Below are positions 3,559 to 61,600 of a stretch of DNA of 64,000 bases, piece after piece. Source of the stretch: Lachnospiraceae bacterium (GTDB lineage: Bacteria > Bacillota > Clostridia > Lachnospirales > Lachnospiraceae). A model generated the notes under the pieces. It saw only the letters and a list, made by a program, of their open reading frames with translations. It was not told where the DNA came from and did not search any database. Both the position numbers and the translations under genes were made by a program. Position 1 is the first letter of the stretch. Each line of letters begins with the position of its first letter. The DNA lies in contig JAFXSQ010000030.1 in the NCBI GenBank assembly GCA_017525525.1, forward strand, positions 63 to 64,062, in the 5' to 3' direction.

Positions 3559-3626
3559 AAAAGATCTTTTGCTTACGCTCTGGATGACACGGCGAGGTGT
3601 CATTTTGAGCGCAGTGAAGAATCTTA
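3558..3626. repeat. family-1 head-to-head pair between the deacetylase stop and the folC RBS
   Basis: Reverse copy AAGATCTTTTGCTTACGCTCTGGATGACAC, spacer GGCGAG, forward copy GTGTCATTTTGAGCGCAGTGAAGAATCTTA. Confidence 0.85.
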
Positions 3627-3636
3627 TTGTTGGAGA

Positions 3637-4893
3637 ATGCAAATGAATTACAACGAATCAATTTCTTATATCGAAAACAAGACTAAGCTCGGCATAAAGC
3701 CGGGCTTAAGTAGTATAATGGACCTTTTATCGGCGCTTAAGAACCCACAGCGAAAGCTCAAATGCGTACATATAGCCGGGACAAACGGCAAGGGCTCAGC
3801 CGGGGCATTTTTGGAGAGCATACTGATGCATGCGGGCATAAAAGTCGGCAGGTATACCTCGCCGGCGGTGTTTGAATATCTGGAAAGGTTCACTATATCG
3901 GGATGTATGGTAAGCGAAGACGAATATGCTGAAGCTATAGGACAGATCAGCGGATTGCCCGAGGCGGAGACGGCAACGGTTTTTGAGATTGAGACTGCCG
4001 CAGCCTTTTTACTGTTTGCTTCGAAAAATGTGGAAATTGCATTGGTAGAGTGCGGAATGGGCGGGGAAAGCGATGCGACCAACGTAGATTTTCAAACTCT
4101 TGTTAGCGTGATAACCTCGATAGGTAACGACCATGCGGCATTTTTGGGCCCGAAATTGACAGATATAGCCAACCATAAAGCCGGTATTATCAAGGAGGGC
4201 GGTATAACAGTTTCGGCGCCGCAGTCCGATGAGGTTTCAGCGGTTATAAAAAAGCGGTGTGATCTGAAATTATCGAAGCTTATAGGCATATCCGAACCGG
4301 ATATAAGGATGCTTGAATCCTCTATAGAGAGCGGAACCCGGTTTTCTTATAAGGGCCGGGAGTATCATATCTCCCTTCCGGGAACTTACCAGCCGGAGAA
4401 CGCTGCCTGCGCGATTGAGACGGCGTTTGCGCTTAAAAAGCTTGGTTTTGATATAGATGAAGAGGATATCCGCTCGGGGCTTGATCAGGCCGGGTGGCCC
4501 GGGCGAATGGACGTGGTCAGCCGAGAACCTCTTATTGTCTTTGACGGCGCACATAATGAACCGGCGTGGAAAAAGCTTGTTGAATCCGTTGATTTTTATT
4601 TTACAAACAGAAGAATTATATATATAATAGGAGTATTCAAGGATAAGGACTATGAAAAGCTGGTCAGACTGATTTCGGAGTCTCCGCATACGGGCCCGGT
4701 AATATGCATATCTGCTCCCGGAGAAAGGGGGCTTGACCGGGAAGCGCTATCAGAGCGCTTTACCCGCGCGGGCATGGAGAGTTATACCTCTGAAGGATTT
4801 AAACAGGCGCTGGAGCTTGCGAAGACCCTGAGAAATCCCGGTGATGTTACAGTCTGCTGCGGCTCGTTGTCTTATTTTAAGTTCTTATTATAA
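3637..4893 (+). CDS. folC: folylpolyglutamate synthase / dihydrofolate synthase
   Basis: 418 aa, Mur-ligase-type P-loop AGTNGKGS, folate gene context. The alternative ATG at 3643 has better spacing to the GGAGA RBS. Confidence 0.9.
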   Translation: MQMNYNESISYIENKTKLGIKPGLSSIMDLLSALKNPQRKLKCVHIAGTNGKGSAGAFLESILMHAGIKVGRYTSPAVFEYLERFTISGCMVSEDEYAEAIGQISGLPEAETATVFEIETAAAFLLFASKNVEIALVECGMGGESDATNVDFQTLVSVITSIGNDHAAFLGPKLTDIANHKAGIIKEGGITVSAPQSDEVSAVIKKRCDLKLSKLIGISEPDIRMLESSIESGTRFSYKGREYHISLPGTYQPENAACAIETAFALKKLGFDIDEEDIRSGLDQAGWPGRMDVVSREPLIVFDGAHNEPAWKKLVESVDFYFTNRRIIYIIGVFKDKDYEKLVRLISESPHTGPVICISAPGERGLDREALSERFTRAGMESYTSEGFKQALELAKTLRNPGDVTVCCGSLSYFKFLL

Positions 4894-5415
4894 ATGCTCT
4901 TTATTATAACGAAGCGGACGGATTGTATTTGCATGGAACGAGTAAACAGACTGATAAACGATGAGGAATATATACGCTTGTCCGATCGGATAAAACAAGC
5001 GGAACAAAACAGGAAATTCTGCAGACATGGGCTTTCGCACAGTTTGGATGTGGCCCGGATCTGCTATATCTTAAATCTCGAAGAAAATCTCGGAATTAAA
5101 AAAGATGTAATATATGCGTGCGCTCTGGTTCACGATCTCGGGCGCGCATGTGAGTATGAAAGCGGAGAGTCACATCACGAAGCCGGAAGCAGGATAGCGG
5201 CAGGTCTGCTTCAAAGAGCGGGATTTGACGAGGAAGAAATGAGCTTGATGAGCGAGGCGGTGTCCATGCACAAGGAGATAAGCGATGCTGCGGCAAATAA
5301 GCTCGCTGTTATTCTGTGCAGGGCAGATAAGTTGTCAAGAATGTGCTTTGACTGTGAAGCCTGCGAAGAGTGTTACTGGAAGGAAGAAAAGAAGAACAAG
5401 GGAGTGTTGCTTTGA
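4894..5415 (+). CDS. HD-domain phosphohydrolase with C-terminal CxxCxxCxxC cluster
   Basis: 173 aa with an H...HD signature (HGLSHSLDVARI ... LVHDLGRA) and C-terminal CFDCEACEEC. It is embedded between folC and folP. The start is uncertain (alternative ATG at 4933). Confidence 0.75.
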   Translation: MLFIITKRTDCICMERVNRLINDEEYIRLSDRIKQAEQNRKFCRHGLSHSLDVARICYILNLEENLGIKKDVIYACALVHDLGRACEYESGESHHEAGSRIAAGLLQRAGFDEEEMSLMSEAVSMHKEISDAAANKLAVILCRADKLSRMCFDCEACEECYWKEEKKNKGVLL

Positions 5416-5417
5416 AA

Positions 5418-6242
5418 ATGAATGCGGGCGGTGTGATAAGGATTGGCAAGAAGGACTTCTGTACGGGCGGAAAGCCTTATGTGATGGGAATACTCAATCT
5501 TACGCCGGATTCTTTTTCGGACGGTGGAAGCTACGAGGATACGGACAAGGCTCTTTTCGCCGTTGAGCGAATGATGAAGGACGGGGCGGACATCATAGAT
5601 GTGGGCGGTGAGTCTACCAGGCCGGGGTATATTATGATAAGCGCCGGCGAGGAGATTGCGAGAACCTGTTTCGTGATAGAGGCGATAAAGGAGAGGTTTG
5701 AGGTTCCTGTATCCCTTGATACCTACAAGGCTGAGGTTGCGGAGGCCGGCATACTTGCGGGAGCAGATATGATCAATGATATATGGGGGCTCAAATATGA
5801 CGACCGCATGGCAGGGATAGTTGCAAAGCATGACAAGGCGGTGTGCCTGATGCACAATCGGGAAAAAGCTGTATATAACGACCTTATAGAGGATGTGATA
5901 TCCGATATCAAAGAGTGCGTGTCCATCGCCGAGGCCCACGGAATAAAGCGTGACAGGATGATAATCGATCCCGGCATCGGTTTTGCCAAGAGCTCTGAGG
6001 AGTGCTTAAGAGTAATAAATGAGATGGACAGGCTTAAAGACATCGGACTTCCTGTGCTGCTAGGCGCATCGAGAAAGTCTTGCATAGGCAACACGCTGAA
6101 TCTTCCGGTAGACGAGAGAGAGGAAGGAACGATAGCGCTTTCGGTAATGGGATTGGTCAGGGGCGCTACATTTTTCAGGGTTCATGATGTAAAGAAGAAC
6201 AGGAGAGCGCTTGATATGGCGTGGGCGGTTATGAACGCCTGA
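5418..6242 (+). CDS. folP: dihydropteroate synthase
   Basis: Pterin-binding domain motifs GILNLTPDSFSDGG, DVGGESTRPG and IIDPGIGFAK. The ATG at 5418 lies just after the upstream stop; the longer ORF from 5370 overlaps the HD gene. Confidence 0.9.
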   Translation: MNAGGVIRIGKKDFCTGGKPYVMGILNLTPDSFSDGGSYEDTDKALFAVERMMKDGADIIDVGGESTRPGYIMISAGEEIARTCFVIEAIKERFEVPVSLDTYKAEVAEAGILAGADMINDIWGLKYDDRMAGIVAKHDKAVCLMHNREKAVYNDLIEDVISDIKECVSIAEAHGIKRDRMIIDPGIGFAKSSEECLRVINEMDRLKDIGLPVLLGASRKSCIGNTLNLPVDEREEGTIALSVMGLVRGATFFRVHDVKKNRRALDMAWAVMNA

Positions 6243-6278
6243 TAAAGGACTCAGATACTTTGGGCTCGGTAATGAATT

Positions 6279-6307
6279 GTCATCCTGAGCGTCAGCGAAG
6301 GATCTTA
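6279..6307 (+). repeat. family-1 unit
   Basis: GTCATCCTGAGCGTCAGCGAAGGATCTTA, ending 14 nt before the folB/K ATG. Confidence 0.85.
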
Positions 6308-14811: not shown

Positions 14812-14875
14812 AAAAAAATAATAAAGTTCCTTCGGTTCGTTTAGGTTGATAGAAGAAAGTTTTTGATAAAGCAGT

Positions 14876-14904
14876 GTCATTCTGAGCGAAGCGAAGAATC
14901 TTTA
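14876..14904 (+). repeat. family-1 unit (canonical)
   Basis: GTCATTCTGAGCGAAGCGAAGAATCTTTA, ending 12 nt before the yesL-like ATG. Confidence 0.9.
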
Positions 14905-34802: not shown

Positions 34803-34886
34803 ATCAGTAGCCTCCTCTCTAGTGTATAGATAATGCTATTTTATCATATTCTTGCTCAAGATACAAGAGGACGGTTTTCAATCTGT

Positions 34887-43542: not shown

Positions 43543-43614
43543 GGTCGATTGGTCAAGCGGTTAAGACGTCGCCCTCTCACGGCGAAAACAGGGGTTCGAT
43601 TCCCCTATCGACTG
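43543..43614 (+). tRNA. tRNA-Glu (anticodon CTC)
   Basis: Cloverleaf folded by hand. Acceptor GGTCGAT/ATCGACT, anticodon stem TCGCC/GGCGA with loop CTCTCAC, T arm AGGGG-TTCGATT-CCCCT. No encoded CCA. Confidence 0.9.
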
Positions 43615-43617
43615 CTC

Positions 43618-49105: not shown

Positions 49106-49113
49106 AGAATTTG

Positions 49114-49141
49114 AAGAGGCGGTGTTGTATCCGCCTCTTTG
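49114..49141 (+). terminator. terminator-like hairpin after the ABC exporter pair
   Basis: AAGAGGCGG ... CCGCCTCTTT, with a short T-run. Confidence 0.55.
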
Positions 49142-49165
49142 AGGGTATTGTAAAGTTATTATGAA

Positions 49166-49217
49166 AAAGACTCTTCGGGATAAAGAGGTGTCACTCTGAG
49201 CGTAGCGAAGAGTCTTT
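49166..49217 (+). repeat. family-1 unit with an upstream complementary arm
   Basis: AAAGACTCTTCG ... GTCACTCTGAGCGTAGCGAAGAGTCTTT, ending 16 nt before the hflX ATG. Confidence 0.85.
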
Positions 49218-49232
49218 AATATAGGTTATTAT

Positions 49233-50492
49233 ATGATAGAGATAGAAGAGAAAAAAGAAACAGTGATACTTGTAGCGGTTGATTCCGGGACGCCGGAGTC
49301 GGATGTGGAAAGCTCCTTGGATGAGCTTGCCGAGCTGGTCAAGACTGCGGGAGCTTCGGTTTCCGGAAGGCTGGTGCAGAAGCTTGACGGTTTTAACCCG
49401 GGAACCTACATAGGCAAGGGCAAGATAGAGGAGCTTCGAGCTATGGTCTTTGCAACCGGAGCCACCGGAATAGTAACGGATGATGAGCTCACTCCTGTAC
49501 AGATGCACAATCTGTCTACCGAATTAGACATTAAGGTTATGGACAGGACTATGGTGATACTCGATATATTTGCCCTTCATGCGAGCACTGCAGAGGGTAA
49601 GCTTCAGGTAGAGCTTGCCCAGCTTAATTACAGGCTTTCAAGGCTTACGGGCAAGGGCGCCTCCATGTCGAGGCTCGGAGGCGGTATAGGTACCAGAGGA
49701 CCCGGTGAGAAGAAGCTGGAGGTGGACAGACGAGCTATAAGGAGCAGGGTGGCGCAGCTTAGAAGTGAAATCAGGGAGATGACCGAGCACAGGAAGCTTA
49801 CCCGTGCGGGCAGAGAGGGAAGCATGCTGCCGGTATTTGCGATAGTGGGTTACACGAACGCCGGGAAGTCTACTCTGTTAAATACTCTGACCGGTGCGGA
49901 GATACTTGCGGAGGATATGCTCTTTGCCACGCTTGACACCACGACAAGGGTATATGAGTACGCAAGGGCAACGGGAAAGCAGAGAGTACTGCTCACAGAT
50001 ACGGTAGGCTTTATAAGAAAGCTTCCGCATAACTTGATTGATGCCTTCCGAAGCACGCTTGAGGAGGCAGGGTATGCCGATTACATAATCCATGTGGTGG
50101 ATGCCTCAAGCGCGGATATGAAGGTCAATATGAAGACGGTTTATGCCACTCTCGATAAGCTTGGGATAACCGAGAGAAAGATCATCACGGTGTTTAACAA
50201 GATAGACAAGCTATCAGGGGATGATCTCTCGGGCCTCTTCGACAACAGGGCGACCAAGAGTGTGAGGCTTTCGGCAAGGGAGGCTATCGGGATAGACGAA
50301 CTGTCTAATGCGATAGACGAACTGCTGCGTGAGGACAGGTGTTATGTAGATACGGTTCTTTCCTATTCGGATATGAACCTTCTGGCGAAGATCAAGAAGA
50401 CCGGAGAGATAGAGTATGAGGAGTATGTGCCTGAGGGAGTGCATATCAAGGCGTTCGTTCCGGGGGAGTTGTACGGAGTTATAGAACAGTAA
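49233..50492 (+). CDS. hflX: GTPase HflX
   Basis: 419 aa with an HflX N-domain (LDIFALHASTAEGKLQVELAQL) and G-domain motifs GYTNAGKST, DTVGF and NKID. Confidence 0.92.
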   Translation: MIEIEEKKETVILVAVDSGTPESDVESSLDELAELVKTAGASVSGRLVQKLDGFNPGTYIGKGKIEELRAMVFATGATGIVTDDELTPVQMHNLSTELDIKVMDRTMVILDIFALHASTAEGKLQVELAQLNYRLSRLTGKGASMSRLGGGIGTRGPGEKKLEVDRRAIRSRVAQLRSEIREMTEHRKLTRAGREGSMLPVFAIVGYTNAGKSTLLNTLTGAEILAEDMLFATLDTTTRVYEYARATGKQRVLLTDTVGFIRKLPHNLIDAFRSTLEEAGYADYIIHVVDASSADMKVNMKTVYATLDKLGITERKIITVFNKIDKLSGDDLSGLFDNRATKSVRLSAREAIGIDELSNAIDELLREDRCYVDTVLSYSDMNLLAKIKKTGEIEYEEYVPEGVHIKAFVPGELYGVIEQ

Positions 50493-50495
50493 TTG

Positions 50496-50646
50496 AAAGG
50501 ATCCTTCGCGTTGCGCAGGATGACAAGTCGTAAAACGGTTCCGTACAAGACAACGGTGTCATTCTGAGCGATGCTGACCGCAATGCGAAGCGTTGCGGTG
50601 CCGGCCCGGCGAGGGCTTGCGAAGCAACAGGAAGCGAAGAATCTTA
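50496..50646. repeat. family-1 reverse copy plus forward family-1 unit with a 61-bp apex insertion
   Basis: AAAGGATCCTTCGCGTTGCGCAGGATGAC ... GTCATTCTGAGCGA[TGCTGACCGCAATGCGAAGCGTTGCGGTGCCGGCCCGGCGAGGGCTTGCGAAGCAACAGGA]AGCGAAGAATCTTA. Confidence 0.85.
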
Positions 50647-50662
50647 TTTGGAGGAGAACAAG

Positions 50663-51643
50663 ATGACTATCAACGAACTTATCGACTACTGCCGTGGAAG
50701 GCAGCTTTACATACAGACACACAACTTCCCGGATCCGGATGCCATAGCTTCGGCATTTGGGCTGCAAAAACTGTTTGAACACTTCGGAGTTGAGAGCAGA
50801 CTTTGCTATGTGGGTCGCATAGACCGTGTCAACACAAGGAAGATGACGGAGCTTCTCGGGATAAAGATATCCTCCTATGATGAGCTTGATGAGGAGATGA
50901 GCGAGGACGATTACATAATCTGCGTCGACTCCCAGAAAGGCTCGGGGAATATAAAGGACTTAAAGGGTAACGAGATTGCATGCATAGATCACCATCCGTT
51001 CATAGAAGTGGAGGGGCTGGTTTTTCATGAGGTTCGTTATGTGGGAAGCTGCGCGACTATAATTGCTTCGTATTTTGAGAAGCTTGAGGTGGAGCCTGAC
51101 AAGGCGACTGCAACAGCGCTTTTGTACGGGCTCAAGAATGACACCCTTAATTTCACAAGGGGAGTTCAGGATGAAGATATAGCCATGTTCTCGTGGCTGC
51201 TTAAGAGATGCGATAAGGAGATGCTTTCCAGGCTTGAGCATGACTCCATGGAATACACTGACTTAAGGGCTTACGGAACCGCCATACAAAACATTGAGGT
51301 CTACGGCAGACTCGGTATAGCCATGATTCCTTTTTCCTGCCCGGACGCATTGGTGGCGACGATTTCGGACTTTATACTTGCGCTTGATGCCGTGGAGGTT
51401 GCGGTTGTATATGCTAAGCGAATAGACGGTTACAAATTCTCGGCCAGATCCGAGGTTCCGGGTACCATCAACGCCGGCGAGCTTCTTGCAAATGTTCTCG
51501 CGGGCTACGGTGATGGCGGTGGCCACGCATTTATGGCAGGCGGTCTTATCCCTGCTGCAAATGTATTAAAGCTGGGCGCCGACCCCGATGCGGTTTTAAG
51601 AGAAAAGATACTTGAGTATGTGACGGAGAATACGAAACAGTGA
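50663..51643 (+). CDS. DHH/DHHA1 phosphoesterase (NrnA-like)
   Basis: HNFPDPDAIASA, the DHH motif (CIDHHP) and DHHA1 GGGH (GDGGGHAFMAGG). ATG 50663 follows GGAGGA; the ORF-track start at 50648 is a TTG inside the repeat/RBS region. Confidence 0.8.
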   Translation: MTINELIDYCRGRQLYIQTHNFPDPDAIASAFGLQKLFEHFGVESRLCYVGRIDRVNTRKMTELLGIKISSYDELDEEMSEDDYIICVDSQKGSGNIKDLKGNEIACIDHHPFIEVEGLVFHEVRYVGSCATIIASYFEKLEVEPDKATATALLYGLKNDTLNFTRGVQDEDIAMFSWLLKRCDKEMLSRLEHDSMEYTDLRAYGTAIQNIEVYGRLGIAMIPFSCPDALVATISDFILALDAVEVAVVYAKRIDGYKFSARSEVPGTINAGELLANVLAGYGDGGGHAFMAGGLIPAANVLKLGADPDAVLREKILEYVTENTKQ

Positions 51644-51676
51644 TTGGTATTTTAAGAGAATTGGTGAGGACATAAG

Positions 51677-51718
51677 CATGCTCGTCAACGGAGCTGTTAA
51701 ACTCCGTTGACGAGCATG
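51677..51718. terminator. perfect 17-bp inverted repeat between convergent DHH and MutS-like genes
   Basis: CATGCTCGTCAACGGAG (51677-51693) pairs with CTCCGTTGACGAGCATG (51702-51718). The right arm encodes the last codons of the MutS-like gene. Confidence 0.6.
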
Positions 51719-53430
51719 TCATAGGTTACGCCGTATTTTTCGGCTATATCCTTAGCGTAGGACGAGCCCTCCGGCTGTGCCAAAGCAACCTTGAAGGAAC
51801 GCTTGCCGTCCTCGGTTTGCATAATCAGTGAGGCAGCTCCTGCTTCGGAGCTTTCACGGGTTAATTCCTCGGCGTCCTCTCCGAGCTTGTGCATATGAGT
51901 GTTGTAGATTGTGCGCGTTGCTTTGGTCAGGAGAGCTTTGACGGAATCTCTTGCGATGTAGTAGCCCTCCTCGAAAGATGTCGTGGAGAAGGTCTCGTTC
52001 ATCAGCAGGAGACTTCTGCTTGTCGACTGAGAGAACATCTCCTTGAAACGGACACATTCTTCTCCGAGCCTTCCGAGATCCATGGTTTTGTCCTCGTCTG
52101 CCGGAAAGTGGGTGTAGATGCAGTCGCAGGGAACATAGCGGAAGCTCTCCGCCGGAACGTAGAGTCCACCCTGGGCCAGAACAAACAGCTGCCCGACAGC
52201 CTGCGTGATAGTGGTCTTACCGCCGCGGTTTGCGCCGGTAAGTATATATACGGTATGCTCCCGATCAAAGGAAAGGTCATTCGACACAATTTCACTTACA
52301 TTATCCATGTTCATTGCAAGCTTCAGATTGTAAAAGCCTTTTGCTGACATAGATACAGATGCTTCGTTCTCGATTTCCGGCTGTGTTTCACAGAATACAC
52401 AGCCTTTTTCAATAAGACGGCTGATAAACTCAGCGCATCTGATGTAATATACAAACTCCGGCACCAAAGCGGAGACATTCACTATTGCCACATTTGCATA
52501 CTTGGTAAGCGTATCCTTAAGTTTCTTAACTATGGAGCCGAGCATCTTATTCACCACGGTGTCAAGATAAAATGTAGCGTTTGTTGATGCGCCGTCAGCC
52601 GCCGTATTCACGATTGTGGAGTTGGCTCCGGTAGTTGATGCATAAGTGGATTGCACTGCGTGCAGGCCCGCTTCGTTCTTCATATAATCGATGAAGCCGT
52701 GCTTTTCCTCTCCGTCGATGAGCTGATAACGCATGTCGCCGTCCCAGTCTGCGGTATCGCGAAGCTTGTCTTTTGCTGCAATCGCATCGGCGAAATTGCT
52801 GACGATGCCCGATTTTTTAAAAGGCTTTTTGTTGATGGATACAAGTCCTATGCCGACGGCTTCAAAGCGCTCGTTGACATTGATTCCCAGAGTGACGCTC
52901 TGTACATCGGATGCCTTCATTTTGAGTTGAGCGATATCAGCCTTCATTTCGGCAAAGCAAGCGTCTTCGTAGAGCTCGGTAATGTAAGCCTTGAGTGAAA
53001 TCAGTCCCTCGGATTGAAGGCGCTCATCGGACAGGCAGTCTCGCATGGTTTCCACAATTTGGATATAGTCATCCAACTCATCGAGACGATGGAAGAGATG
53101 CCATAATCCAAGCTCCTCATCAGAGGTCTTGTGCAATGTGGAAAAATCCTTCATGAATTGAATCTTGTCGAAAAGCTGCAGCATGGTGTCTCTCAGTTCG
53201 GGAAGCCGAAGAATATCCGAGAAAATCTGCCGGCGATACGCGGCGACATTCGCATCTTCTGTTATTTGCGAAAGTACATTTGTGATCATACGCCGTTCTT
53301 TGACATCGCTTGATGTAGCCTCGCAAAATGCTTCCAAACCAAGATCGTGCATCACATGGTCGGGAAGCCTGCGGTATTTTGGCTCTGCTCCGACCGGATG
53401 TAACAGGCTGAATTTGGTATTCCGATTCAT
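51697..53430 (-). CDS. MutS-related ATPase (domain V only; no mismatch-binding or Smr domain)
   Basis: 577 aa from the ATG after GGAGGTG. Walker A GANRGGKTT, and a MutS-type Walker B region that reads LLLMNETFSTTS instead of the usual hhhhDE..RGT. Confidence 0.8.
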   Translation of the reverse strand: MNRNTKFSLLHPVGAEPKYRRLPDHVMHDLGLEAFCEATSSDVKERRMITNVLSQITEDANVAAYRRQIFSDILRLPELRDTMLQLFDKIQFMKDFSTLHKTSDEELGLWHLFHRLDELDDYIQIVETMRDCLSDERLQSEGLISLKAYITELYEDACFAEMKADIAQLKMKASDVQSVTLGINVNERFEAVGIGLVSINKKPFKKSGIVSNFADAIAAKDKLRDTADWDGDMRYQLIDGEEKHGFIDYMKNEAGLHAVQSTYASTTGANSTIVNTAADGASTNATFYLDTVVNKMLGSIVKKLKDTLTKYANVAIVNVSALVPEFVYYIRCAEFISRLIEKGCVFCETQPEIENEASVSMSAKGFYNLKLAMNMDNVSEIVSNDLSFDREHTVYILTGANRGGKTTITQAVGQLFVLAQGGLYVPAESFRYVPCDCIYTHFPADEDKTMDLGRLGEECVRFKEMFSQSTSRSLLLMNETFSTTSFEEGYYIARDSVKALLTKATRTIYNTHMHKLGEDAEELTRESSEAGAASLIMQTEDGKRSFKVALAQPEGSSYAKDIAEKYGVTYDMLVNGV

Positions 53431-53493
53431 AAGCGCACCTCCGTATATAAGACTCTTCGGGTTACGCACAACCGGAGGAGTCTTTCTCATAAA

Positions 53494-54345
53494 TCACTTT
53501 ACACTGTCTTTTTTAAGGGGAATACAGATATAGCTTATCGTATCGGCAGGATTTTTTGCCGGCGGCAGATAAAACTCCAGCGAATAATCGCCTGCTAAAG
53601 TATACTCTTTAAGAGCGGGTAGCCATTCCGACCATATCTGACTGTTGACTTTCTGCATACTGTCAGGCAACGGCCCTTCGCACTTAAACAACGCCCACAG
53701 TCCGCCGGGGACTTGGTAAGCGCTTAAGTCCTCCGGAATATCCTCCCATGGAAGATAGAGATCGGCAATCCAATAGTCAAAGTTTTTTCCGTCCATGTCC
53801 GTGCACAGGCCAAACATTCCTTTTAAGCCGTTCGGATTTGACATCCACTCATTCCAGAATTTCGGTACTTCCATGTAGCTTGTCTCTGCATTGAAACGTT
53901 TTTTGATACCTACAACCGTAAAAGGTGCTTTTTCGACAATCTTATAATCTAACATATTTCCGCCCTCCAATGTGATTTTGATATGCAACGGAGCAAATGA
54001 CCGAAGGCTTGCTCCGGATTCTCTTGCCTGCGCAGGGGTGATACCGTGAAAGCGCTGGAAAGCTTTAGTAAAGCTGTCGGGAGAATCATAGCCGTACTTC
54101 ATGGCAATATCGATTACCTTGCGCTCGGAACAGGAGAGCTCCTGCGCCGCTAAAGTCATGCGGCGCGCGCGGATGTATTCTCCGACGGTCATGCCGCACA
54201 TGGCTCCGAAGATACGCTGATAATAGAACGAAGAAAGCGCAGCCTTCTTGGCGATATTCTCTATATCCAGCTCATTTGACAGATTTTGTTCGATATAATC
54301 AATGGAAGCCTGAAATCCATCAATCCAGTCTTTCATAACGGTCAC
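53494..54345 (-). CDS. AraC-family transcriptional regulator with GyrI-like effector-binding domain
   Basis: 283 aa. It has an N-terminal double HTH (FYYQRIFGAMCGMTVGEYIRARRM..., DSPDSFTKAFQRFHGITP) and a C-terminal GyrI-like beta-rich domain. Confidence 0.85.
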   Translation of the reverse strand: MTVMKDWIDGFQASIDYIEQNLSNELDIENIAKKAALSSFYYQRIFGAMCGMTVGEYIRARRMTLAAQELSCSERKVIDIAMKYGYDSPDSFTKAFQRFHGITPAQARESGASLRSFAPLHIKITLEGGNMLDYKIVEKAPFTVVGIKKRFNAETSYMEVPKFWNEWMSNPNGLKGMFGLCTDMDGKNFDYWIADLYLPWEDIPEDLSAYQVPGGLWALFKCEGPLPDSMQKVNSQIWSEWLPALKEYTLAGDYSLEFYLPPAKNPADTISYICIPLKKDSVK

Positions 54346-54401
54346 CTCGCTCGTATAATATGTAATGGCACGATTGCTAAAGCAATCCTGCCTAGTCTAA
54401 T

Positions 54402-54486
54402 GTCATAAGGAATCCACCGCTTCGCGGTACCCCCTTATGACGAAAGTCGGTGCGATGCAAAATTATGACTTCGTCATAATCGCACC
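54402..54486 (+). repeat. family-2 double-hairpin repeat
   Basis: GTCATAAGGAATCCACCGCTTCGCGGTACCCCCTTATGAC + GGTGCGATGCAAAATTATGACTTCGTCATAATCGCACC. Confidence 0.9.
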
Positions 54487-54566
54487 TCGCTTAAGCTTGA
54501 TAGTATTATTTCACATCAGGGGATTTTTGTCCCGACTTTTTGTGCGCTCTTTGTCGGGGTCGGAAT

Positions 54567-55322
54567 CTATATCTCCTCCGAAGAGAGGAGAGGGCGGTTA
54601 AGGACCTGTTTTTTATAGTCCGTAGGAGTGAGGCCGGTGTGCTTGCGGAAAATCTCAGTGAAGTAGCTCTGACTCGGGAAGGCAAGGATTGCGGAAATCT
54701 GCGCCGGCTTGTAATCCGAGAACCGAAGCATATTCTTGGCTGTCTCGATTTTTTGTGTGCGTATGTAGCTGCTTATAGTGGCGCCGACCTCCTTCTTGAA
54801 CAGACGGGAAAGGTAGTTGGGGTTAAGATCAACGAGCTTTGCCAATTCTTCTACCGTTATTTTGGCGTGAAGGTTGTCATATATATAATCTATGCATTGC
54901 GCAATCTGCTTTGAACATATGGCATGCTTTCGTAATGAACGCATGCGCTTAGCGTAATCGATGCACATGATAGGATGCAGCGCGGAGATGTCCTCCGTGC
55001 TTTTGCATTTGTCGGCTTTTTGAATGTAAAAATCACTCAGGCTGTAGGCTGAGGATAGGTCCATGCCGGATTGGATACAGTAACGCGCGACCAAGGCAGT
55101 GGTAATCACAAAATGATACTTTAAATTCTGAAGCGGATTTTCCGAAAGTCGTCCCAGCCCCGGTTTGTCAGTCAATACATCCTTGCAAAGCTCCTTAACG
55201 CGCTCGACATTCCCCGCTCCGATGGTAGTGTAAAACTCAATCTCCGGGTTTATCGGGGCGCGTGAAAACTCGTTTTCTCTCTGTACAAAATTCTTGTAGA
55301 AGAGCTCTTTTTGGTAATCCAT
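54567..55322 (-). CDS. AraC-family transcriptional regulator
   Basis: 251 aa with a C-terminal AraC HTH (LSRLFKKEVGATISSYIRTQKIETAKNML..., SQSYFTEIFRKHTGLTPTDYK). It is divergent from the GH16 gene. Confidence 0.8.
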   Translation of the reverse strand: MDYQKELFYKNFVQRENEFSRAPINPEIEFYTTIGAGNVERVKELCKDVLTDKPGLGRLSENPLQNLKYHFVITTALVARYCIQSGMDLSSAYSLSDFYIQKADKCKSTEDISALHPIMCIDYAKRMRSLRKHAICSKQIAQCIDYIYDNLHAKITVEELAKLVDLNPNYLSRLFKKEVGATISSYIRTQKIETAKNMLRFSDYKPAQISAILAFPSQSYFTEIFRKHTGLTPTDYKKQVLNRPLLSSEEI

Positions 55323-55490
55323 AGTTACCTCCTTGAATCTGAAAAAATCAATATAATTATTATATCATAAAAACGACAAATAAGTAATAAAAAAGATATA
55401 TTATTTTTGGGCTTTATTATATACTTTTGAACATGCGTGTGGGAGGTATAATGTTAAAAGAGGAAAACCAAATAATAAGGAGGATTACAA

Positions 55491-58400
55491 ATGGTTAAGA
55501 AGATGAAAATGTTCGCTAAGCGAGCATGCGTCGGTATCATGTCGGCGGCGATGATGATGACCGCTGTTCCGGCGTTGCCGATACTGGCAGCAGAAGAGGA
55601 TCCGGTTGTGGGCTTCCCTATGGACGGACACGACGACGGATACGCTGATGCGTACAGTGAAGAAGGCTATTCCCTCGTGTGGAACGATGAGTTCGATGAA
55701 GACACGCTTAACACAGATGACTGGCTGGTAGAGTTACATCCGGCAGGCTGGGTTAACAGTGAGCTTCAGGAGTATGTAGGACTTGAGAACGGCAATATTG
55801 AGGTTAAGGACGGCATACTTTCAATCAAGACAAAGGCAACAAAGAAGGCTGACGCGCCCGAAGGACCGGCAAATCCGGAGGTTTTGAAGGGTGATGGCTT
55901 TGACGCAACCAATTGGGGCGGCGGAGCAGGCGGTTCAGCTAAGGGCTCCGTAGCTTATGATAGCGGAAAAGCAGTTCTCACTATCGAAGATTCCGGAGCT
56001 GAAAACTGGAACTTCCAGATTCAGCAGAGCAATCTTGCGCTTGAGGCAGGTCATGAGTATGAATTTACTGTGAAGGCAAGCTCAACCGTAGCAAGAAAGA
56101 CAGAAATAAGCGTACTTGACCCGGCAAACAATTATGCTTGGTACGGCGGAACAACCGCAAGTATCGGAACCGAAGAGGGCGAGATAAAGTTCAACTTTGA
56201 AATGAAGGACACCAGTGAGACTATAGCTCTTCAGATTAACTTCGGTCTTATAGGCGGAAACGCTGAGGATAGCAGCCCGGCTGTTGTAACTCTTTCGGAT
56301 GTATCATTAAAGGATCTTTCTGTAACATCCGATACGGTTGATGTTAAGAAGACCTACGACATCACTTCAGGCCGTATATCTACTGATGATAAGCACGAGT
56401 TTACCTACGGACGTTTTGAAGCTAAGCTCAAGGTTCCCGAGGGTAAGGGATATTGGCCGGCATTCTGGCTCTTAGGAGATCAGAGCATCTACGGACAGTG
56501 GCCGAGATGCGGCGAGATAGACGTAATGGAAATCGTCGGTGACTCTGTTGATACAACACAGGGTAATATCTGGTCAGGATACACAAGCAGCACTACAAAG
56601 GACAATCCTAAGAAGAAGATTCTTGGTGAGGGCGAAGGCACATTTGCAGACAGCTGGCATACCTTTACACTTGACTGGGAGCCCGGTAAGGTTACCTGGT
56701 ATGTTGACGGAGAGAAGATGCATGAAGTAAGCGACTGGTACACAGGAAAGGATGCAAACAGCATCATTACCTATCCCGCACCTTATGATCAGCCGTTCTA
56801 TGTAATTCTTAACCTTGCTTTCGGCGGACAGATGGGTGGTACTCCTACACAGGAAACCATGGATGATATGGACAATCAGGCATATCAGATTGATTATGTG
56901 CGTGTATACCAGAAGGATCCGGAAGTGTACAAGGAGATGTTAGAGAACTGCAAACGTCCCGAGCAGGTTTCAACCTTCAGAGAGCCTGACACCGAAGGAA
57001 ACTACATCATTAACGGTACCTTTGCTGAGGATATCGACAGGTCAGAAGGCGCAACAGGCGATACAAACTGGATTCTCTATACCGAGAGCGATGCAAAGAA
57101 TGCATCCGCAGAGGTAGAAGACGGCGTAATCAAGATTGATCCGGGTGTTGTCGGCGATAAGAACCACAGCATTCAGCTTAAGCAGCAGAGCATCCCTATG
57201 TACAGGGGATGGGAGTATGAGCTTTCGTTCGACGCATGGGCAGATGAGGCTCGTACAATGATAGTTGATATCTCCGGACCGAATAACGGTTGGACAAGAT
57301 ATTACGATGATACAACATTTGATCTTACAACAGAGAAGCAGCCATTTACGGTTCCTTTCACAATGGAGAAGAAGACCGATGACAACGGTTCTCTTGAATT
57401 CAACTTCGGAAACCAGGGTTCAACCGTACCTGTTTATATCACAAATGTAAAGATTACACACAAGTCGGGAGAGTTAATCCCTGAGGATACTTCAAAGTCT
57501 GTCGGCATAGACGGCAACTATATATACAACGGTTCCTTCGACCAGGGTGATGACAGACTCGGTTACTGGGATATTGAGGCCGCTGAAGGAAGTGTAAGCG
57601 TTACCAACGAAGGCACAAGAAGAGAGTTAAAGGCCGTTATTACTATACCTGAGGGCGCAACTGAGGCCGGTCCGGTACATATTTCACAGAATGAGCTTGC
57701 TCCGATAGCTGCAGGTAAGTATGAGATGAGCTTCGATGCTTACATGGAGGAAGGCTCAAGCGCAGATGCGCTTACCGTTAGTGTTGCAGGCAAGGAAATC
57801 AAGCCTGAGCTTACAACAGCAAAGAAGAACTATTCAGAGAAGTTTGAGGTAATAGAGAGTCTTACACGTGACCAGTCAAATGTGGTATTTACATTCGATA
57901 AGCCGGGTACATACTATCTTGACAATGTATGGCTTGTTGAGGATGCTATGATTAAGAACGGTTCATTCTCTGCAGATATGGCAAGCTGGGAGCCGTATAT
58001 CGACGGCGCAGCAGATGCTTCTTATGTAGTAGACAGCCAGCACGGCAAGGACTATGCATTTGAGATGACTGTCAACAAGACAGGTACCATGGATTGGCAG
58101 GTAGCATTAAATCAGGAGAACATCCTTCTTGAGAAGGGCAAATTCTACAAGGTAACATTTGCGGTAAAGAGCACAATCAATCGCCAGATAGTATGGAGCT
58201 TCCAGCGCAACGGAAGTGTTCGCGGCGATGATACATGGACCAATTACAGTGGTGATGGCACAACCGATGTTGGACCGACATGGAAGACTGTTGAAGCGGT
58301 ATTCGAGATGAAAGAGGATACTGATGATAAGACAAGATTCAACATCAGCATGGGTGCGGTTAACGGTGCTGAGATCAACGACATCCACTATGTATACATT

Positions 58401-59186
58401 GATGATGTTACACTTGAAGAAACAGAGGAGCCTGTTCCTACAACTAAGGACATCACAACCGCTACAGTAACCGGTCTTGGCACAAAGGCTTGGACAGGTT
58501 CGGAGATTACTCCGGTTGTAACCGTTAAGGACGGCGATGTAACTCTTAAGAAGGGTACAGATTACACTGTAGAGTACAAGAACAACAAGGCAGCAGGTAA
58601 GGCTTCTGTAGTTATAACCGGTATCGGCGACTACGAAGGCACTATTACAAAGAGCTTCCTTATAAAGAAGGTTGCCTTAAAGTACAGAGCTTATGTACAG
58701 AAGAACAACTGGATGGCATGGCAGACAGCTAACATCTCCGGAACCAAGGCTTCGGGAGCTGCAGGCTACGCTGATATGAAGAAGGATCTCAGAATGGAGA
58801 CGATCCAGATGCAGCTTTCAGGCATATCAGGCTCGGTTGAGTACAGAGCTTACTGCGCAAAGAAGGGCTGGACACAGTGGGCAACAACCGCTGATACAAA
58901 AACTTACGCAGGTACAAAGGGTGAGTCAAGAAGAGTAGAGCTTATCCAGCTTAAGGCTAAGGGACAGGTTGCTACACTTTACGATATGTACTTCAGAGCT
59001 TACTCAGAGAAGTTCGGATGGCTCGGATGGGCTAAGTCAGGTGAGAAGGCAGGAACTCAGGGTTATGCATATAAGCTTGAGGCATTCCAGGTTAACTTCG
59101 TACCGAAGGGAACAACCTTCTCAATCAAGTCTTCAAAGACCAAGAGCTTCTATGATAAGACAAAGGACGGCGCTAACCCTAAGTAA
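55491..59186 (+). CDS. secreted multidomain beta-glucanase: GH16 catalytic domain (interrupted by a CBM4/9-like insert), three further CBM4/9-like modules, Ig-like domain, three ChW repeats
   Basis: 1231 aa with a signal peptide. GH16 motifs are WNDEFD, WVNSELQEY and GEIDVMEIVG. CBM-like modules repeat. The C-terminal ChW repeats are YRAYVQKNNWMAWQ, YRAYCAKKGWTQWA and FRAYSEKFGWLGWA. Confidence 0.9.
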   Translation: MVKKMKMFAKRACVGIMSAAMMMTAVPALPILAAEEDPVVGFPMDGHDDGYADAYSEEGYSLVWNDEFDEDTLNTDDWLVELHPAGWVNSELQEYVGLENGNIEVKDGILSIKTKATKKADAPEGPANPEVLKGDGFDATNWGGGAGGSAKGSVAYDSGKAVLTIEDSGAENWNFQIQQSNLALEAGHEYEFTVKASSTVARKTEISVLDPANNYAWYGGTTASIGTEEGEIKFNFEMKDTSETIALQINFGLIGGNAEDSSPAVVTLSDVSLKDLSVTSDTVDVKKTYDITSGRISTDDKHEFTYGRFEAKLKVPEGKGYWPAFWLLGDQSIYGQWPRCGEIDVMEIVGDSVDTTQGNIWSGYTSSTTKDNPKKKILGEGEGTFADSWHTFTLDWEPGKVTWYVDGEKMHEVSDWYTGKDANSIITYPAPYDQPFYVILNLAFGGQMGGTPTQETMDDMDNQAYQIDYVRVYQKDPEVYKEMLENCKRPEQVSTFREPDTEGNYIINGTFAEDIDRSEGATGDTNWILYTESDAKNASAEVEDGVIKIDPGVVGDKNHSIQLKQQSIPMYRGWEYELSFDAWADEARTMIVDISGPNNGWTRYYDDTTFDLTTEKQPFTVPFTMEKKTDDNGSLEFNFGNQGSTVPVYITNVKITHKSGELIPEDTSKSVGIDGNYIYNGSFDQGDDRLGYWDIEAAEGSVSVTNEGTRRELKAVITIPEGATEAGPVHISQNELAPIAAGKYEMSFDAYMEEGSSADALTVSVAGKEIKPELTTAKKNYSEKFEVIESLTRDQSNVVFTFDKPGTYYLDNVWLVEDAMIKNGSFSADMASWEPYIDGAADASYVVDSQHGKDYAFEMTVNKTGTMDWQVALNQENILLEKGKFYKVTFAVKSTINRQIVWSFQRNGSVRGDDTWTNYSGDGTTDVGPTWKTVEAVFEMKEDTDDKTRFNISMGAVNGAEINDIHYVYIDDVTLEETEEPVPTTKDITTATVTGLGTKAWTGSEITPVVTVKDGDVTLKKGTDYTVEYKNNKAAGKASVVITGIGDYEGTITKSFLIKKVALKYRAYVQKNNWMAWQTANISGTKASGAAGYADMKKDLRMETIQMQLSGISGSVEYRAYCAKKGWTQWATTADTKTYAGTKGESRRVELIQLKAKGQVATLYDMYFRAYSEKFGWLGWAKSGEKAGTQGYAYKLEAFQVNFVPKGTTFSIKSSKTKSFYDKTKDGANPK

Positions 59187-59222
59187 ATAATGACTTGTTA
59201 CAGGTCGAATAAGTGATATCAG

Positions 59223-59258
59223 ATCTCCCCTGCCTTTTCGGACAGGGGAGATTTTTTA
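59223..59258 (+). terminator. intrinsic terminator after the GH16 gene
   Basis: ATCTCCCCTG ... CAGGGGAGATTTTTT. Confidence 0.85.
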
Positions 59259-59348
59259 TGCGCAGGGGCGCCGAGATGTAGGTGTCAGCTAAAGCTGACC
59301 GGCGCCCCGCGCGCGCATAAGGAGCGACTTCGTCTTCCTTATGCGATT
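59257..59348 (+). repeat. family-4 repeat plus family-3-type 3' hairpin, attached to the GH16 terminator
   Basis: TATGCGCAGGGGCGCCGAGATGTAGGTGTCAGCTAAAGCTGACCGGCGCCCCGCGCGCG CATAAGGAGCGACTTCGTCTTCCTTATGCGATT. Confidence 0.85.
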
Positions 59349-59424
59349 TTCTTTGTTGTATTGACTTATGTATTGTTTCAAACTATAATAGTTTTGTATG
59401 TCTTTATGCATAGGGAGGCTAAAA

Positions 59425-60627
59425 ATGCAGCGTAAACCGGAATGGTATAATAAGAAATGGATTGGCAATCTGATCACGGTTGCTTTCGGAGTAATACTCT
59501 TTGTTCTGTTGGAGCACATCGGAGATATATGGCACGGTATTGGCGCCTTCTTCAAATTCCTCACACCTGTTGTAATAGGTCTTTGTATAGCGTATGTTCT
59601 CGATCCGCTGGCGAAGGTATTCGAAAATAGGATATTCGACGGGGTGAAGAAGGAGGGCGCAAGACGAATACTCTCCGTTACATTTTCGTTGATACTGTTG
59701 TTGTTGCTCTTGGTGGTTCTTATGGTATCGCTTATACCTCAGCTGGCCGACAGTGTGAATATGTTCATTAATAACCTGGACGGGTACTCGAAATCATTTA
59801 CATCCTTTATCGATAAGGTGCAGAACATGAAGTTCATGAAGGGTGTAAATCTGACCAATGTAACCAACTCAATGGAGAATGTGGTTAACGGTATCATAAA
59901 GTCCATAACGGACAACAAGGCTAAGATTTTAGAGACCACATACGGCGTGGGAAGCAGCGTTATGAACGGCGCGTTGGGCTTTATACTGGCAATATACTTC
60001 CTGTATGGCAAGAGGTTTGTGGTTGACGGAGTTAAGAGGTTTTTGAAGGCTATACTCACGGAGAGACAGTATACGAATATAAGAAAGATATTTGTCCGCT
60101 CGAACAAGATCATGGTGCGTTATATAAGCTTTGACCTGATCGACGGTCTTATAGTCGGCATAGTTAACTGGGTATTCATGCTTATTACCGATATGCAGTA
60201 TTCGGTGCTTATCTCGGTGGTTGTCGGTATTACAAATCTTGCGCCTACCTTCGGTCCTATGGTCGGCGCCGTAATAGGCGGCTTCATCCTGCTTTTGGCT
60301 AATCCGTTAGACGCGCTGATTTTCCTTATATTTACGGCTGTGCTTCAGACCATAGACGGATATGTCTTAAAGCCGAAGCTCTTCGGCGACAGCCTAGGTG
60401 TTTCAGCGGTGCTTATCATAATATTCATTATAGTAGGCGGAAAGATGTTCGGCGTTATGGGAGTGCTTCTCTCCATACCGTGCGCGGGCATTCTCGACTT
60501 CCTGTATCATGAGTACTTTATCGAGAGGATAGAAGAGAGGAAGAACCGGCGTGAGGAAGCGGAGAAGGAGAAGTATGCCGCGGAGGAAAAGCTTAAAGCG
60601 AAAACGGCAGCTGAGAATGAAGAATGA
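59425..60627 (+). CDS. AI-2E family transporter (PerM/UPF0118)
   Basis: ATG after GGGAGG, about 8 TM segments, typical NLAPTFGPMVGAVIG motif, charged C-terminal tail. Confidence 0.85.
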   Translation: MQRKPEWYNKKWIGNLITVAFGVILFVLLEHIGDIWHGIGAFFKFLTPVVIGLCIAYVLDPLAKVFENRIFDGVKKEGARRILSVTFSLILLLLLLVVLMVSLIPQLADSVNMFINNLDGYSKSFTSFIDKVQNMKFMKGVNLTNVTNSMENVVNGIIKSITDNKAKILETTYGVGSSVMNGALGFILAIYFLYGKRFVVDGVKRFLKAILTERQYTNIRKIFVRSNKIMVRYISFDLIDGLIVGIVNWVFMLITDMQYSVLISVVVGITNLAPTFGPMVGAVIGGFILLLANPLDALIFLIFTAVLQTIDGYVLKPKLFGDSLGVSAVLIIIFIIVGGKMFGVMGVLLSIPCAGILDFLYHEYFIERIEERKNRREEAEKEKYAAEEKLKAKTAAENEE

Positions 60628-60632
60628 CACCT

Positions 60633-60803
60633 GTCATTCTGAACGAAGTGAAGAATCTTAATAACAAAATGTCATTCTGAACGAAGTGAAGAATCTTAAT
60701 AACAAAGTGTCATTCTGAACGAAGTGAAGAATCTTAATAACAAAATGTCATTCTGAACGAAGTGAAGAATCTTAAATAACGAAGAATCTTAATAATAGAG
60801 AGG
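60633..60803 (+). repeat. tandem array: four 38-bp units (28-bp family-1 unit + 10-bp linker) plus a partial fifth
   Basis: GTCATTCTGAACGAAGTGAAGAATCTTA + ATAACAAAAT, with units starting at 60633, 60671, 60709 and 60747. One linker variant is ATAACAAAGT. Confidence 0.95.
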
Positions 60804-60813
60804 AATAAATATT

Positions 60814-61419
60814 ATGTACATTACATGCTTGGATTTAGAGGGAGTTTTGGTGCCGGAGATATGGATTGCTTTTGCGGAAGAAACCGGTATCCCGGAGTTA
60901 AAGAGGACTACAAGGGATGAGCCGGATTATGACAAGCTTATGAAGTTTAGGATAGGCATATTAAAGGAGCACGGCCTGGGCTTAAAGGAGATACAGGACA
61001 CTATAGCAAAGATTGATCCGATGCCGGGCGCAAAGGAGTTTTTAGATGAGCTCAGAAGCGAGTGCCAGACTATCATCTTGAGCGATACATTTACCCAGTT
61101 TGCAACACCTCTTATGAAGAAGCTCGGCTGGCCTACAATATTCTGCAACAGCCTTGAGGTATCCGAGAGCGGAGAAGTCACAGGCTTTAAGATGCGTTGC
61201 GAGCAGAGCAAGCTGACTACCGTTAAGGCTTTACAGTCAATAGGCTATGAGACTATTGCTTCCGGAGACAGCTTCAACGATCTTGGTATGATACAGGCAA
61301 GCAAGGCGGGCTTTTTGTTCAGGAGCACGGAGGCTATTAAGAAGGAGCATCCGGAGCTTCCGGCATTTGAAACTTATGATGAACTGCTTGGCGCAATAAA
61401 GAAAGTTATCGCCGAGTAA
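60814..61419 (+). CDS. thrH: phosphoserine phosphatase / homoserine phosphotransferase ThrH-like HAD protein
   Basis: 201 aa. CLDLEGVLVPEIWIAFAEETGI..., ILSDTF and GDSFND closely resemble Pseudomonas ThrH as I recall it. Confidence 0.8.
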   Translation: MYITCLDLEGVLVPEIWIAFAEETGIPELKRTTRDEPDYDKLMKFRIGILKEHGLGLKEIQDTIAKIDPMPGAKEFLDELRSECQTIILSDTFTQFATPLMKKLGWPTIFCNSLEVSESGEVTGFKMRCEQSKLTTVKALQSIGYETIASGDSFNDLGMIQASKAGFLFRSTEAIKKEHPELPAFETYDELLGAIKKVIAE

Positions 61420-61450
61420 GTGTAAATAGGTTATGAAAATAAAGCGCTTA

Positions 61451-61600
61451 GAATGACACAGGGTGTCACTCTGAGCGAAGCGACGCAGACCTCAATGCGA
61501 AGCGTTGAGGTGCCGGCCTTCGATGTCATAAGGAATCCACCGCAAGCGGTACCCCTTATGACGAAATACGAGGGCTTGCGAAGCAACAGGAAGAGTCTTA
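61451..61600 (+). repeat. composite nested repeat (family-1 ends, GC-rich insert, family-2 module B)
   Basis: GTCACTCTGAGCGAAGCGACGCAGACCTCAATGCGAAGCGTTGAGGTGCCGGCCTTCGATGTCATAAGGAATCCACCGCAAGCGGTACCCCTTATGACGAAATACGAGGGCTTGCGAAGCAACAGGAAGAGTCTTA. It ends 16 nt before the aroA ATG. Confidence 0.9.

Follow-up and report, generated by a model that had tools for sequence, protein, structure and literature searches.

The 64,000-nt window analysed here, the whole stretch taken from contig JAFXSQ010000030.1 of a Lachnospiraceae bacterium, contains a short hairpin repeat with the consensus unit GTCAYYCTGA-NC-GNA-GN-GAAGRRTCTT, which recurs far more often than expected by chance and whose complete + strand copies end 13–23 nt ahead of seven start codons, always in the sense orientation. 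We propose, with a probability of roughly 60%, that this unit is the hairpin end-module of small, non-coding, palindromic mobile repeats of the kind represented by miniature inverted-repeat transposable elements (MITEs) and repetitive extragenic palindromes (REPs). The copies in the window are recent insertions into spacers of 13–54 nt between co-oriented genes, and the gene neighbourhoods of related repeats suggest that they are probably linked to GIY-YIG nucleases. A regulatory role as modulatory RNA is possible and not required, and the elements would not be dedicated regulators. A preliminary description of the repeat, which took its strand and distance bias as a sign of an RNA-level role and not of random MITE debris, is partly supported. 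The data read from the source genome amount to 74 kb, comprising the window and 10 kb upstream of it (L212).

The insertions were revealed by a comparison of orthologous spacers between related strains, as the preliminary description had proposed. Two independent assemblies (L119 and L120) represent a strain with a 98%-identical HflX and are collinear with the window, and another strain (L218) has an 86%-identical FolB/K. Presence or absence of the element differs at five sites:

Spacer from the ABC gene to hflX: 127 nt in the window, 54 nt in the 98% strain (L119/L120).
Spacer from hflX to the DHH gene: 170 nt in the window, 21 nt in the 98% strain (L119/L120).
Spacer from the AI-2E gene to the HAD gene: 186 nt in the window, 30 nt in the 98% strain (L119/L120).
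Spacer from the HAD gene to aroA: 196 nt in the window, 13 nt in the 98% strain (L119/L120).
Spacer from folP to folBK: 78 nt in the window, 24 nt in the 86% strain (L218).

No unit was found anywhere in the stretches L119, L120 and L125. At aroA, the flanks are the same in the window and the 98% strain, and a 183-nt block (61420–61602) fits precisely into the gap from the stop codon to the Shine-Dalgarno site; this block is absent in the 98% strain, where the 13-nt empty site reads GAGTAA followed by TGAGGAATGATATATG. Conversely, L218 carries its own sense tandem units in the spacer from folBK to ppx, which is empty in the window. The elements also rewrite the ends of genes. In the window, one of them provides the TGA stop of the AI-2E gene, and in L218 (2415–2430) the CTGA of the unit supplies the stop of FolBK. 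In the 89% strain L121, the spacer from hflX to the DHH gene holds a different pair of reversed and forward copies, the reversed one of which (5620–5650) encodes a new 9-residue C-terminus of HflX. Altogether, the elements show several features of MITEs: they are small and non-coding, bear terminal inverted repeats (forward and reversed units separated by short loops), occur in many copies, and are polymorphic in presence, with five empty orthologous sites in the 98% and 86% strains.

The position of the elements largely follows from the way in which they are inserted. As the stop codon and the Shine-Dalgarno site must both survive, an inserted block fills the spacer and its last module ends 13–23 nt before the ATG, so that the nearness to the start codon is largely due to the filling of a short stop-to-Shine-Dalgarno gap. 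The earlier argument that such placement is not what random MITE debris would produce is not supported on this point, since insertion polymorphism in 13–54-nt spacers explains most of the distance rule.

A scan of the window with the 27-mer GTCATTCTGAGCGAAGCGAAGAATCTT, allowing up to three mismatches, yielded eight matches, all on the + strand, compared to 0.00 expected from shuffles, which confirms that the repeat is real and non-random. These matches start at 3599, 14876, 34887 and 49190, in addition to four tandem copies at 60633–60773. The heptamer GCGAAGC occurs 23 times in the window, compared to 12.0 ± 3.5 expected. Additional copies were collected by half-site scans and by direct reading of the window. 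The copies are single, in tandem, paired with a reversed copy or equipped with nested extra hairpins; in the long forms, three of which are present in the window, both unit ends are kept and the nested hairpins lie within the apex, each inner hairpin being tipped by GCGAAGC or GCAAGC. In order of position, the copies are as follows:

87–110, − strand: short unit variant GTGTCACTCTGAGCGAAGAGTCTT, without the inner 2-bp stem.
111–151, + strand: unit with a replaced apex, GTCATTCTGAG-AGGAGAAAACTTTAGCC-CGAAGAATCTT, in a divergent spacer, 170 nt before the + strand gene at 322.
3561–3590, − strand: diverged reversed copy, starting 2 nt past the stop (3556–3558) of a polysaccharide-deacetylase gene.
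3597–3625, + strand: complete unit, 17 nt ahead of the folC-like start at 3643 (start as in the L212 gene call).
6277–6306, + strand: complete unit, a 28-nt variant with the loop GTCA, 14 nt ahead of the folB/folK start at 6321.
14874–14902, + strand: consensus unit, 13 nt ahead of the DUF624 gene start at 14916.
34885–34913, + strand: complete unit within a divergent spacer.
34917–35055, − strand: long form with unit ends and nested hairpins, ~115 nt upstream of, and sense to, a − strand GGDEF gene (start 34802).
49165–49176, − strand: reversed fragment of the unit 3′ end, AAAGACTCTTCG.
49188–49216, + strand: complete unit, 16 nt ahead of the hflX start at 49233.
50496–50524, − strand: reversed copy, beginning 3 nt past the hflX stop codon.
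50556–50645, + strand: long form without the innermost hairpin, 17 nt ahead of the DHH gene start at 50663.
60618–60632, − strand: reversed 5′ fragment (…GAATGACAC), which overlaps the AI-2E transporter gene at its end and provides the TGA stop of that gene.
60631–60790, + strand: tandem array of four units (period 38) with an extra 3′ half, ending 23 nt ahead of the HAD gene start at 60814.
61420–61459, − strand: left part of the inserted block, with 24 unassigned nt followed by the reversed 5′ unit fragment GCGCTTAGAATGACAC.
61463–61602, + strand: long form with all nested hairpins, 16 nt ahead of the aroA start at 61616.

The distances to the seven start codons, counted from the closing …CTT, are 17, 14, 13, 16, 17, 23 and 16 nt, in agreement with the short distance of 10–17 nt given earlier from slightly different end points. 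The seven downstream genes encode, according to Pfam, Mur-ligase/FolC-like, FolB+HPPK, DUF624, HflX, DHH, HAD and EPSP synthase domains, so that the gene names already given to them hold. Reversed copies or fragments lie just past upstream stop codons at 3561–3590, 50496–50524, 49165–49176, 60618–60632 and 61444–61459, the first two of which had been pointed out before. Owing to such reversed copies, the statement that the repeat is always in the sense orientation applies to the copy adjoining each start codon and not to all copies.

The long form at 34917–35055 is 94% identical over 115 nt to 61479–61593 in the reverse orientation, and that at aroA has a predicted RNA fold of −53.5 kcal/mol (z = −4.5); no long form was found outside the source lineage among the sequences scanned. 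Tandem Repeats Finder reports the array at 60632–60780 with a period of 38, 3.9 copies and 97% identity, and a CRISPR reading of it was rejected, as its 11-nt spacers are nearly identical and the array is 97% self-identical. A hammerhead-type ribozyme, brought to mind by the CUGA…GAA pattern, was also rejected, because the core (CUGANGA/GAAA) is absent on reading of the sequence. Rfam, searched at gathering and E-value thresholds over the window and eight GIY-YIG loci, gave no family matching the 27-nt unit. Within 48900–62000, neither a sigma-70 promoter (−35/−10) nor an intrinsic terminator (GC-rich stem followed by a T run) was found on the sense strand inside the elements.

The hairpin noted in the preliminary description is real, and it is under selection. 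A structure descriptor, composed of GTCA, 4 nt, GA, 2 nt, a loop, 2 nt, GA, 4 nt and T with complementarity required, matched 218 times in the sequences scanned, compared to 0 in shuffled sequence. The outer stem of these matches is built from the pairs TTCT/AGAA, TCCT/AGGA, CCCT/AGGG and CTCT/AGAG, the inner stem is GC/GC in 119 of them, and the loops GAA (90), GCA (60), GTA (31) and GGA (19) together account for 200 of the 218. A second sample was gathered by sequence similarity alone, and 150 of its 164 distinct units were aligned. In this alignment 94% of the stem cells are paired, compared to 83% after shuffling and 22–52% in slid controls, and 141 cells changed on both sides, compared to 33 expected. 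Conservation exceeds 90% among the 164 distinct units at the unpaired GTCA, at both GA dinucleotides and at the final A of the loop.

In most units, the apex reads GC-GNA-GC (N being A, C, T or G) and follows the rule of the d(GCGNAGC) mini-hairpin, whose GCGAAGC form had been noticed before. As DNA, the d(GCGAAGC) mini-hairpin has a melting temperature of 76.5 °C (PMC13037366), and the tetraloop r(GCGAAAGC) melts at 39 °C, compared to 76.5 °C for the DNA form d(GCGAAAGC) (PMC13037366). The exceptional stability invoked before is a property of DNA and points away from an RNA-specific one. Nearest-neighbour models, which exclude the mini-hairpin motif, give −1.9 kcal/mol for the unit as DNA and an unremarkable −4.6 kcal/mol (z = −0.4) as RNA.

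The sense bias is real and is not explained by geometry. In the 74-kb contig, the G/A-rich strand is sense in 9 of the 9 tandem spacers that hold an element (0.5^9 = 0.002), including the spacer between lagging-strand genes that is occupied by a sister module at 54400–54493, and the one further unit in L212, where all genes are on the − strand, is also on the − strand and sense to its gene. When other Lachnospiraceae loci are added, 19 cases are sense and 3 antisense (two-sided binomial, ~9e-4), which bears out the strand and position bias for this lineage. The window has three convergent spacers, all of them free of elements. In other phyla, units occur in every gene context and often in convergent spacers. 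According to local GC skew, every sense case in other Clostridia belongs to the leading strand, L026 and L093 (antisense, Lachnospiraceae) and the two cases in L044 belong to the lagging strand, and L091 and L075 have a skew near zero; with sense cases leading and antisense cases lagging, local skew cannot tell an effect of transcription from one of replication. The bias may result from RNA-level selection or from insertion linked to transcription or to the replication strand.

The first of these causes would make the element a cis-acting RNA, in which the hairpin 5′ of the ribosome-binding site is kept as a stabiliser or insulator of the downstream cistron and mobility only delivers it; after RNase Y-type processing, such a 5′ stem-loop could block a 5′-exonuclease, or it could uncouple translation. 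Besides the sense bias and the element-free convergent spacers, two observations are consistent with this explanation. The complete copy is always the one nearest to the Shine-Dalgarno site, an arrangement that recurs 15–30 nt before GIY-YIG open reading frames (ORFs), and in the native orientation the inserts leave the predicted accessibility of the ribosome-binding site the same as in the empty state, with in-silico inversion lowering it at three of the seven sites. However, inversion has no effect at the other four, the elements come and go between 98% strains in housekeeping operons, three antisense cases exist in other Lachnospiraceae, and the units of other phyla do not keep to any one context. 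Moreover, the stability of the unit as RNA is unremarkable and the GNA mini-hairpin is far weaker as RNA than as DNA (PMC13037366). An RNA-level origin of the pattern is in our view unlikely.

The unit extends well beyond the source lineage. An exact degenerate 27-mer scan of one-genome-per-species contigs returned at least 118 stretches. Among the matches listed, isolates belong to Pedobacter, Mucilaginibacter, Hymenobacter, Lachnospiraceae and Oscillospiraceae, and metagenome-assembled genomes to Ignavibacteria, Planctomycetota, Chloroflexota, Armatimonadota, Acidobacteriota, Nitrospinota, Desulfobacterota, Proteobacteria and Patescibacteria. As judged from these matches, the unit is not lineage-specific and the family is unusually conserved across phyla. 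Viral contigs gave just 12 matches in 2.9 million, with little sign of phage carriage. In organisms other than Lachnospiraceae, units most commonly occur as a forward and then a reversed copy, separated by a loop of 5–80 nt. Partial units also often form stutter arrays with duplicated flanks; in L053, L006, L050, L023 and L032, two to three repeats of the first 12–17 nt of the unit, together with 8–9 nt of its upstream flank, precede a complete unit. These arrays look like the outcome of hairpin-stalled slippage or abortive copying.

ORFs crossing the units recurrently encode the same read-through pseudo-peptides (CHSERSEES, VILSEAKNL, ILRFAQNDK and RFFASLRMT, L001–L118), and an all-against-all BLAST joins spurious ORFs from unrelated phyla through them. 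The units are in this respect a source of annotation noise, in the form of spurious ORFs with …CHSERSEES…, …VILSEAKNL… or …RFFASLRMT…. A literature search retrieved nothing relevant on the DNA sequence of the unit or on the peptides it encodes.

The search for genes adjoining the repeats points to a nuclease. Among the matches listed, GIY-YIG is the sole gene family common to the repeat-selected loci in which genes directly adjoin units; the other clusters are spurious read-through ORFs or chance pairs of housekeeping genes. The linked protein has 90–110 residues and a minimal domain (Pfam GIY-YIG PF01541 at 1.5e-18), and the profile of the linked proteins matches 1zg2 (BH0048) at 1.2e-7 and 1ywl (EF2693) at 1e-4. 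By these profile matches, it belongs to the UPF0213/bacterial Slx1-like group. Homologues with ~78% identity are labelled Syntrophomonadaceae, Alkaliphilus and Burkholderiales.

In the reverse test, 80 metagenome loci were picked solely by homology to the linked GIY-YIG protein. Within 300 bp of the gene (43 kb in total) there are 79 strict units, compared to 9 in the other 213 kb, a 43-fold enrichment (p ~1e-50), and unit-like 5′ halves lie at most 300 bp from the gene in 77 of the 80 loci. On the 5′ side of the gene, 35 units are co-oriented with it and 9 opposite, whereas the 3′ side is mixed. The usual layout consists of a unit, 15–30 nt, the GIY-YIG ORF and a reversed unit. The isolate Alkaliphilus metalliredigens QYMF has a unit, 17 nt with a ribosome-binding site, the ORF and a reversed unit at the stop codon, which is the geometry of the host genes in the window. 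No direct repeats flank the GIY-YIG genes outside the unit pairs, where the bases T…A extend the ends to TGTCA…TGACA. In L015 (Pedobacter sp. AK013, 4600–5650), an array has a period of 140, in which a unit and a reversed unit are 78 nt apart and another 18 nt follow, and a GIY-YIG gene lies between two of its periods on the opposite strand. Literature searches on GIY-YIG with repeats or transposons and on YhbQ/UPF0213 gave nothing relevant, and the tight link between hairpin and nuclease appears undescribed in the searchable literature.

Several observations weigh against a mobile repeat driven by such a nuclease. Both the window and the 89% strain (L121) have an element in the spacer from hflX to the DHH gene, which is empty in the 98% and 94% strains (L119 and L125); this calls for repeated insertion at one spot or for precise loss. 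No target-site duplication was seen, the aroA site showing only a 1–2-nt A/AA ambiguity. Geometry leaves unexplained why the Shine-Dalgarno site always has the complete G/A-rich copy next to it instead of the reversed one, and why the three convergent spacers of the window are free of elements. No GIY-YIG gene is present in the 74 kb read from the source genome. To our knowledge, GIY-YIG proteins are not known as transposases, and a transposase activity would be unprecedented for this fold. In addition, the 80 loci represent the closest relatives of the unit-adjoining proteins, so that the link may hold for one subfamily only, and the association fits equally well with a nuclease gene homing into repeats.

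This last possibility would make the GIY-YIG gene a passenger, similar to a homing endonuclease, that cuts or recombines into repeat pairs already present, with the units as homology arms; the spread of the repeats would then be due to a different route, such as template switching or slippage induced by the hairpin, or some transposase. Most units are indeed far from any GIY-YIG gene, only 3 of the 118 repeat-selected loci among the matches listed having one, and the ORF sits exactly in the “loop” between forward and reversed units. Furthermore, the exact protein P0241 is found at a single conserved chromosomal place in its species, and stutter arrays with duplicated flanks (L053, L006, L050, L218 and the period-38 array) resemble slippage. 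Yet slippage cannot seed distant new spacers, and five sites differ between close strains; nor does any other candidate enzyme recur beside the units. A mere passenger seems to us improbable, somewhat more so than an RNA-level origin.

Finally, it is very improbable that the repeats form a system of REPs and bacterial interspersed mosaic elements (BIMEs), in which a REP-associated tyrosine transposase (an IS200/IS605-like Y1 enzyme) acts on the lagging-strand-template hairpin and creates the strand bias: although they are short imperfect palindromes with a conserved unpaired 5′ tetranucleotide, occur in mosaic and tandem arrangements, have the G/A-rich strand as lagging-strand template at all seven window sites and flip their orientation with the GC skew upstream of the window, the conserved leader is GTCA (over 90% of the 164 distinct units) and not GTAG, the 118 listed and 80 homology-selected loci show no recurrent Y1 transposase near units, two elements located on the + replichore (34917–35055 and 54400–54493) carry the G/A-rich sequence on the − strand, sense to − strand genes, and REPs prefer the 3′ ends of genes, whereas the elements here avoid convergent spacers.

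For the mobile-repeat reading, we envisage the following course of events. The GIY-YIG nuclease would be the most likely mobility agent, acting on hairpins or cruciforms whose apex obeys the d(GCGNAGC) rule, and the window copies would be non-autonomous. The sense rule might come from strand-specific insertion into exposed single-stranded DNA or, alternatively, from selection against the pyrimidine-rich strand beside the ribosome-binding site, and would in neither case represent an evolved regulatory function. Being free of promoter and terminator consensus, the blocks would be read through as part of the operon mRNA and could fold there. As a tentative extension, held with limited confidence, the hairpin and the minimal UPF0213/Slx1-like GIY-YIG nuclease might together constitute a previously undescribed, cross-phylum class of mobile element, in which the nuclease recognises the mini-hairpin ends as single-stranded DNA or cruciform and moves or copies them, seeding gene-less repeats upstream of ribosome-binding sites that become part of operon mRNAs.

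If the link holds, it would give a function to the widespread small “hypothetical” family of UPF0213/YhbQ-like GIY-YIG proteins, and would add another nuclease fold to the known routes of bacterial DNA movement. The repeats also call for caution in motif discovery, as upstream motifs proposed to be cis-regulatory can be mobile hairpins. Moreover, the sister strains provide a natural experiment, as they differ by structured inserts of 70–180 nt among folate, aromatic amino-acid and GTPase genes and so offer a means of gauging the influence of such inserts on operon expression.

The window contains further repeats apart from the unit, among them three copies of the sister module:

1–86, − strand: sister repeat module, cut by the window edge, with a GA-cis-like hairpin and a GTCATAAGG…CCTTATGAC hairpin with a GAA loop.
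54400–54493, − strand: sister module (GA-cis-like and GAA-loop hairpins) between two − strand genes, sense to them.
63977–64000, + strand: third copy of the sister module, cut by the window end.

The modules at 1–86 and 54407–54486 lie at unrelated loci and share 98.75% identity across 80 nt; for GA-cis (RF02987), Rfam scores the sister module at 33.7 and 32.1 bits, just short of the gathering score of 34.7. A GC-rich hairpin repeat of another kind, 59 nt long (GCGCAGGGGCRCCGAKATGTAGGTGTCAGCTRAAGCTGACCGGYGCCCCGCGCGC), occurs on the + strand at 30583–30641 and 59257–59315 with 93% identity. An RNase P RNA of class A (30175–30512, − strand, 305.6 bits) and a tRNA-Glu(CTC) (43543–43615, + strand) are also encoded. 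The segment 51697–55322 (− strand), with three − strand genes for a MutS_V-domain protein and two AraC-type regulators, is missing in the 98% strain, which has a 334-nt spacer between the DHH and GH16 genes at this place; it is a strain-specific island. Between L212 (1–9680), with all genes on the − strand, and the + strand genes of the window, the GC skew changes from −0.15 to +0.17 across window positions 1–321. The pattern resembles an origin-type switch, but DnaA boxes do not cluster at 1–321, and dnaA is not nearby.

Among known systems, the elements resemble bacterial MITEs such as Correia/NEMIS, RUP, BOX and ERIC, with which they share small size, the non-coding nature, inverted ends, strain polymorphism, insertion near genes, co-transcription and the alteration of gene ends, as in the new stops and the new HflX C-terminus. 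They differ from these MITEs in that no target-site duplication is seen and no classical DDE transposase partner is evident, and in that each end is a hairpin with a GNA mini-hairpin apex, in which further hairpins may be nested. The apex fits the consensus of the d(GCGNAGC) mini-hairpin of Hirao and co-workers (reviewed in PMC13037366), but sits inside a longer stem with tandem G/A mismatches, and in about one third of the copies the outer G-C pair is replaced by A-T or G-T. Similar to GA-cis (RF02987), the sister module lies upstream of genes in the sense orientation; the near-threshold matches concern this module and not the 27-nt unit, and “cis-regulatory” motifs of the GA-cis type may be modules of mobile hairpins as well.

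The unit-flanked proteins share the minimal domain of the Slx1-like GIY-YIG family (UPF0213) and match 1zg2 and 1ywl. Dunin-Horkawicz et al. 2006 (PMC1564403) treated this family as vertically inherited and probably acting in DNA repair, and reported no link to repeats, whereas the genes described here are embedded between conserved hairpin repeats. With the REPs and BIMEs of Enterobacteria and Pseudomonas, the elements have in common that they are short (20–40 nt) imperfect palindromes with a conserved unpaired 5′ tetranucleotide, present in hundreds of intergenic copies as single, inverted or mosaic clusters, transcribed within operons and flanking a small nuclease-type gene. However, the leader is GTCA in the unit and GTAG in REPs, the linked gene encodes a UPF0213/Slx1-like GIY-YIG protein and not a Y1/HUH transposase, and the elements of the source genome are located upstream of start codons and not at 3′ ends. 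Compared to the species-specific REPs, the unit has a sequence that is common to many phyla.

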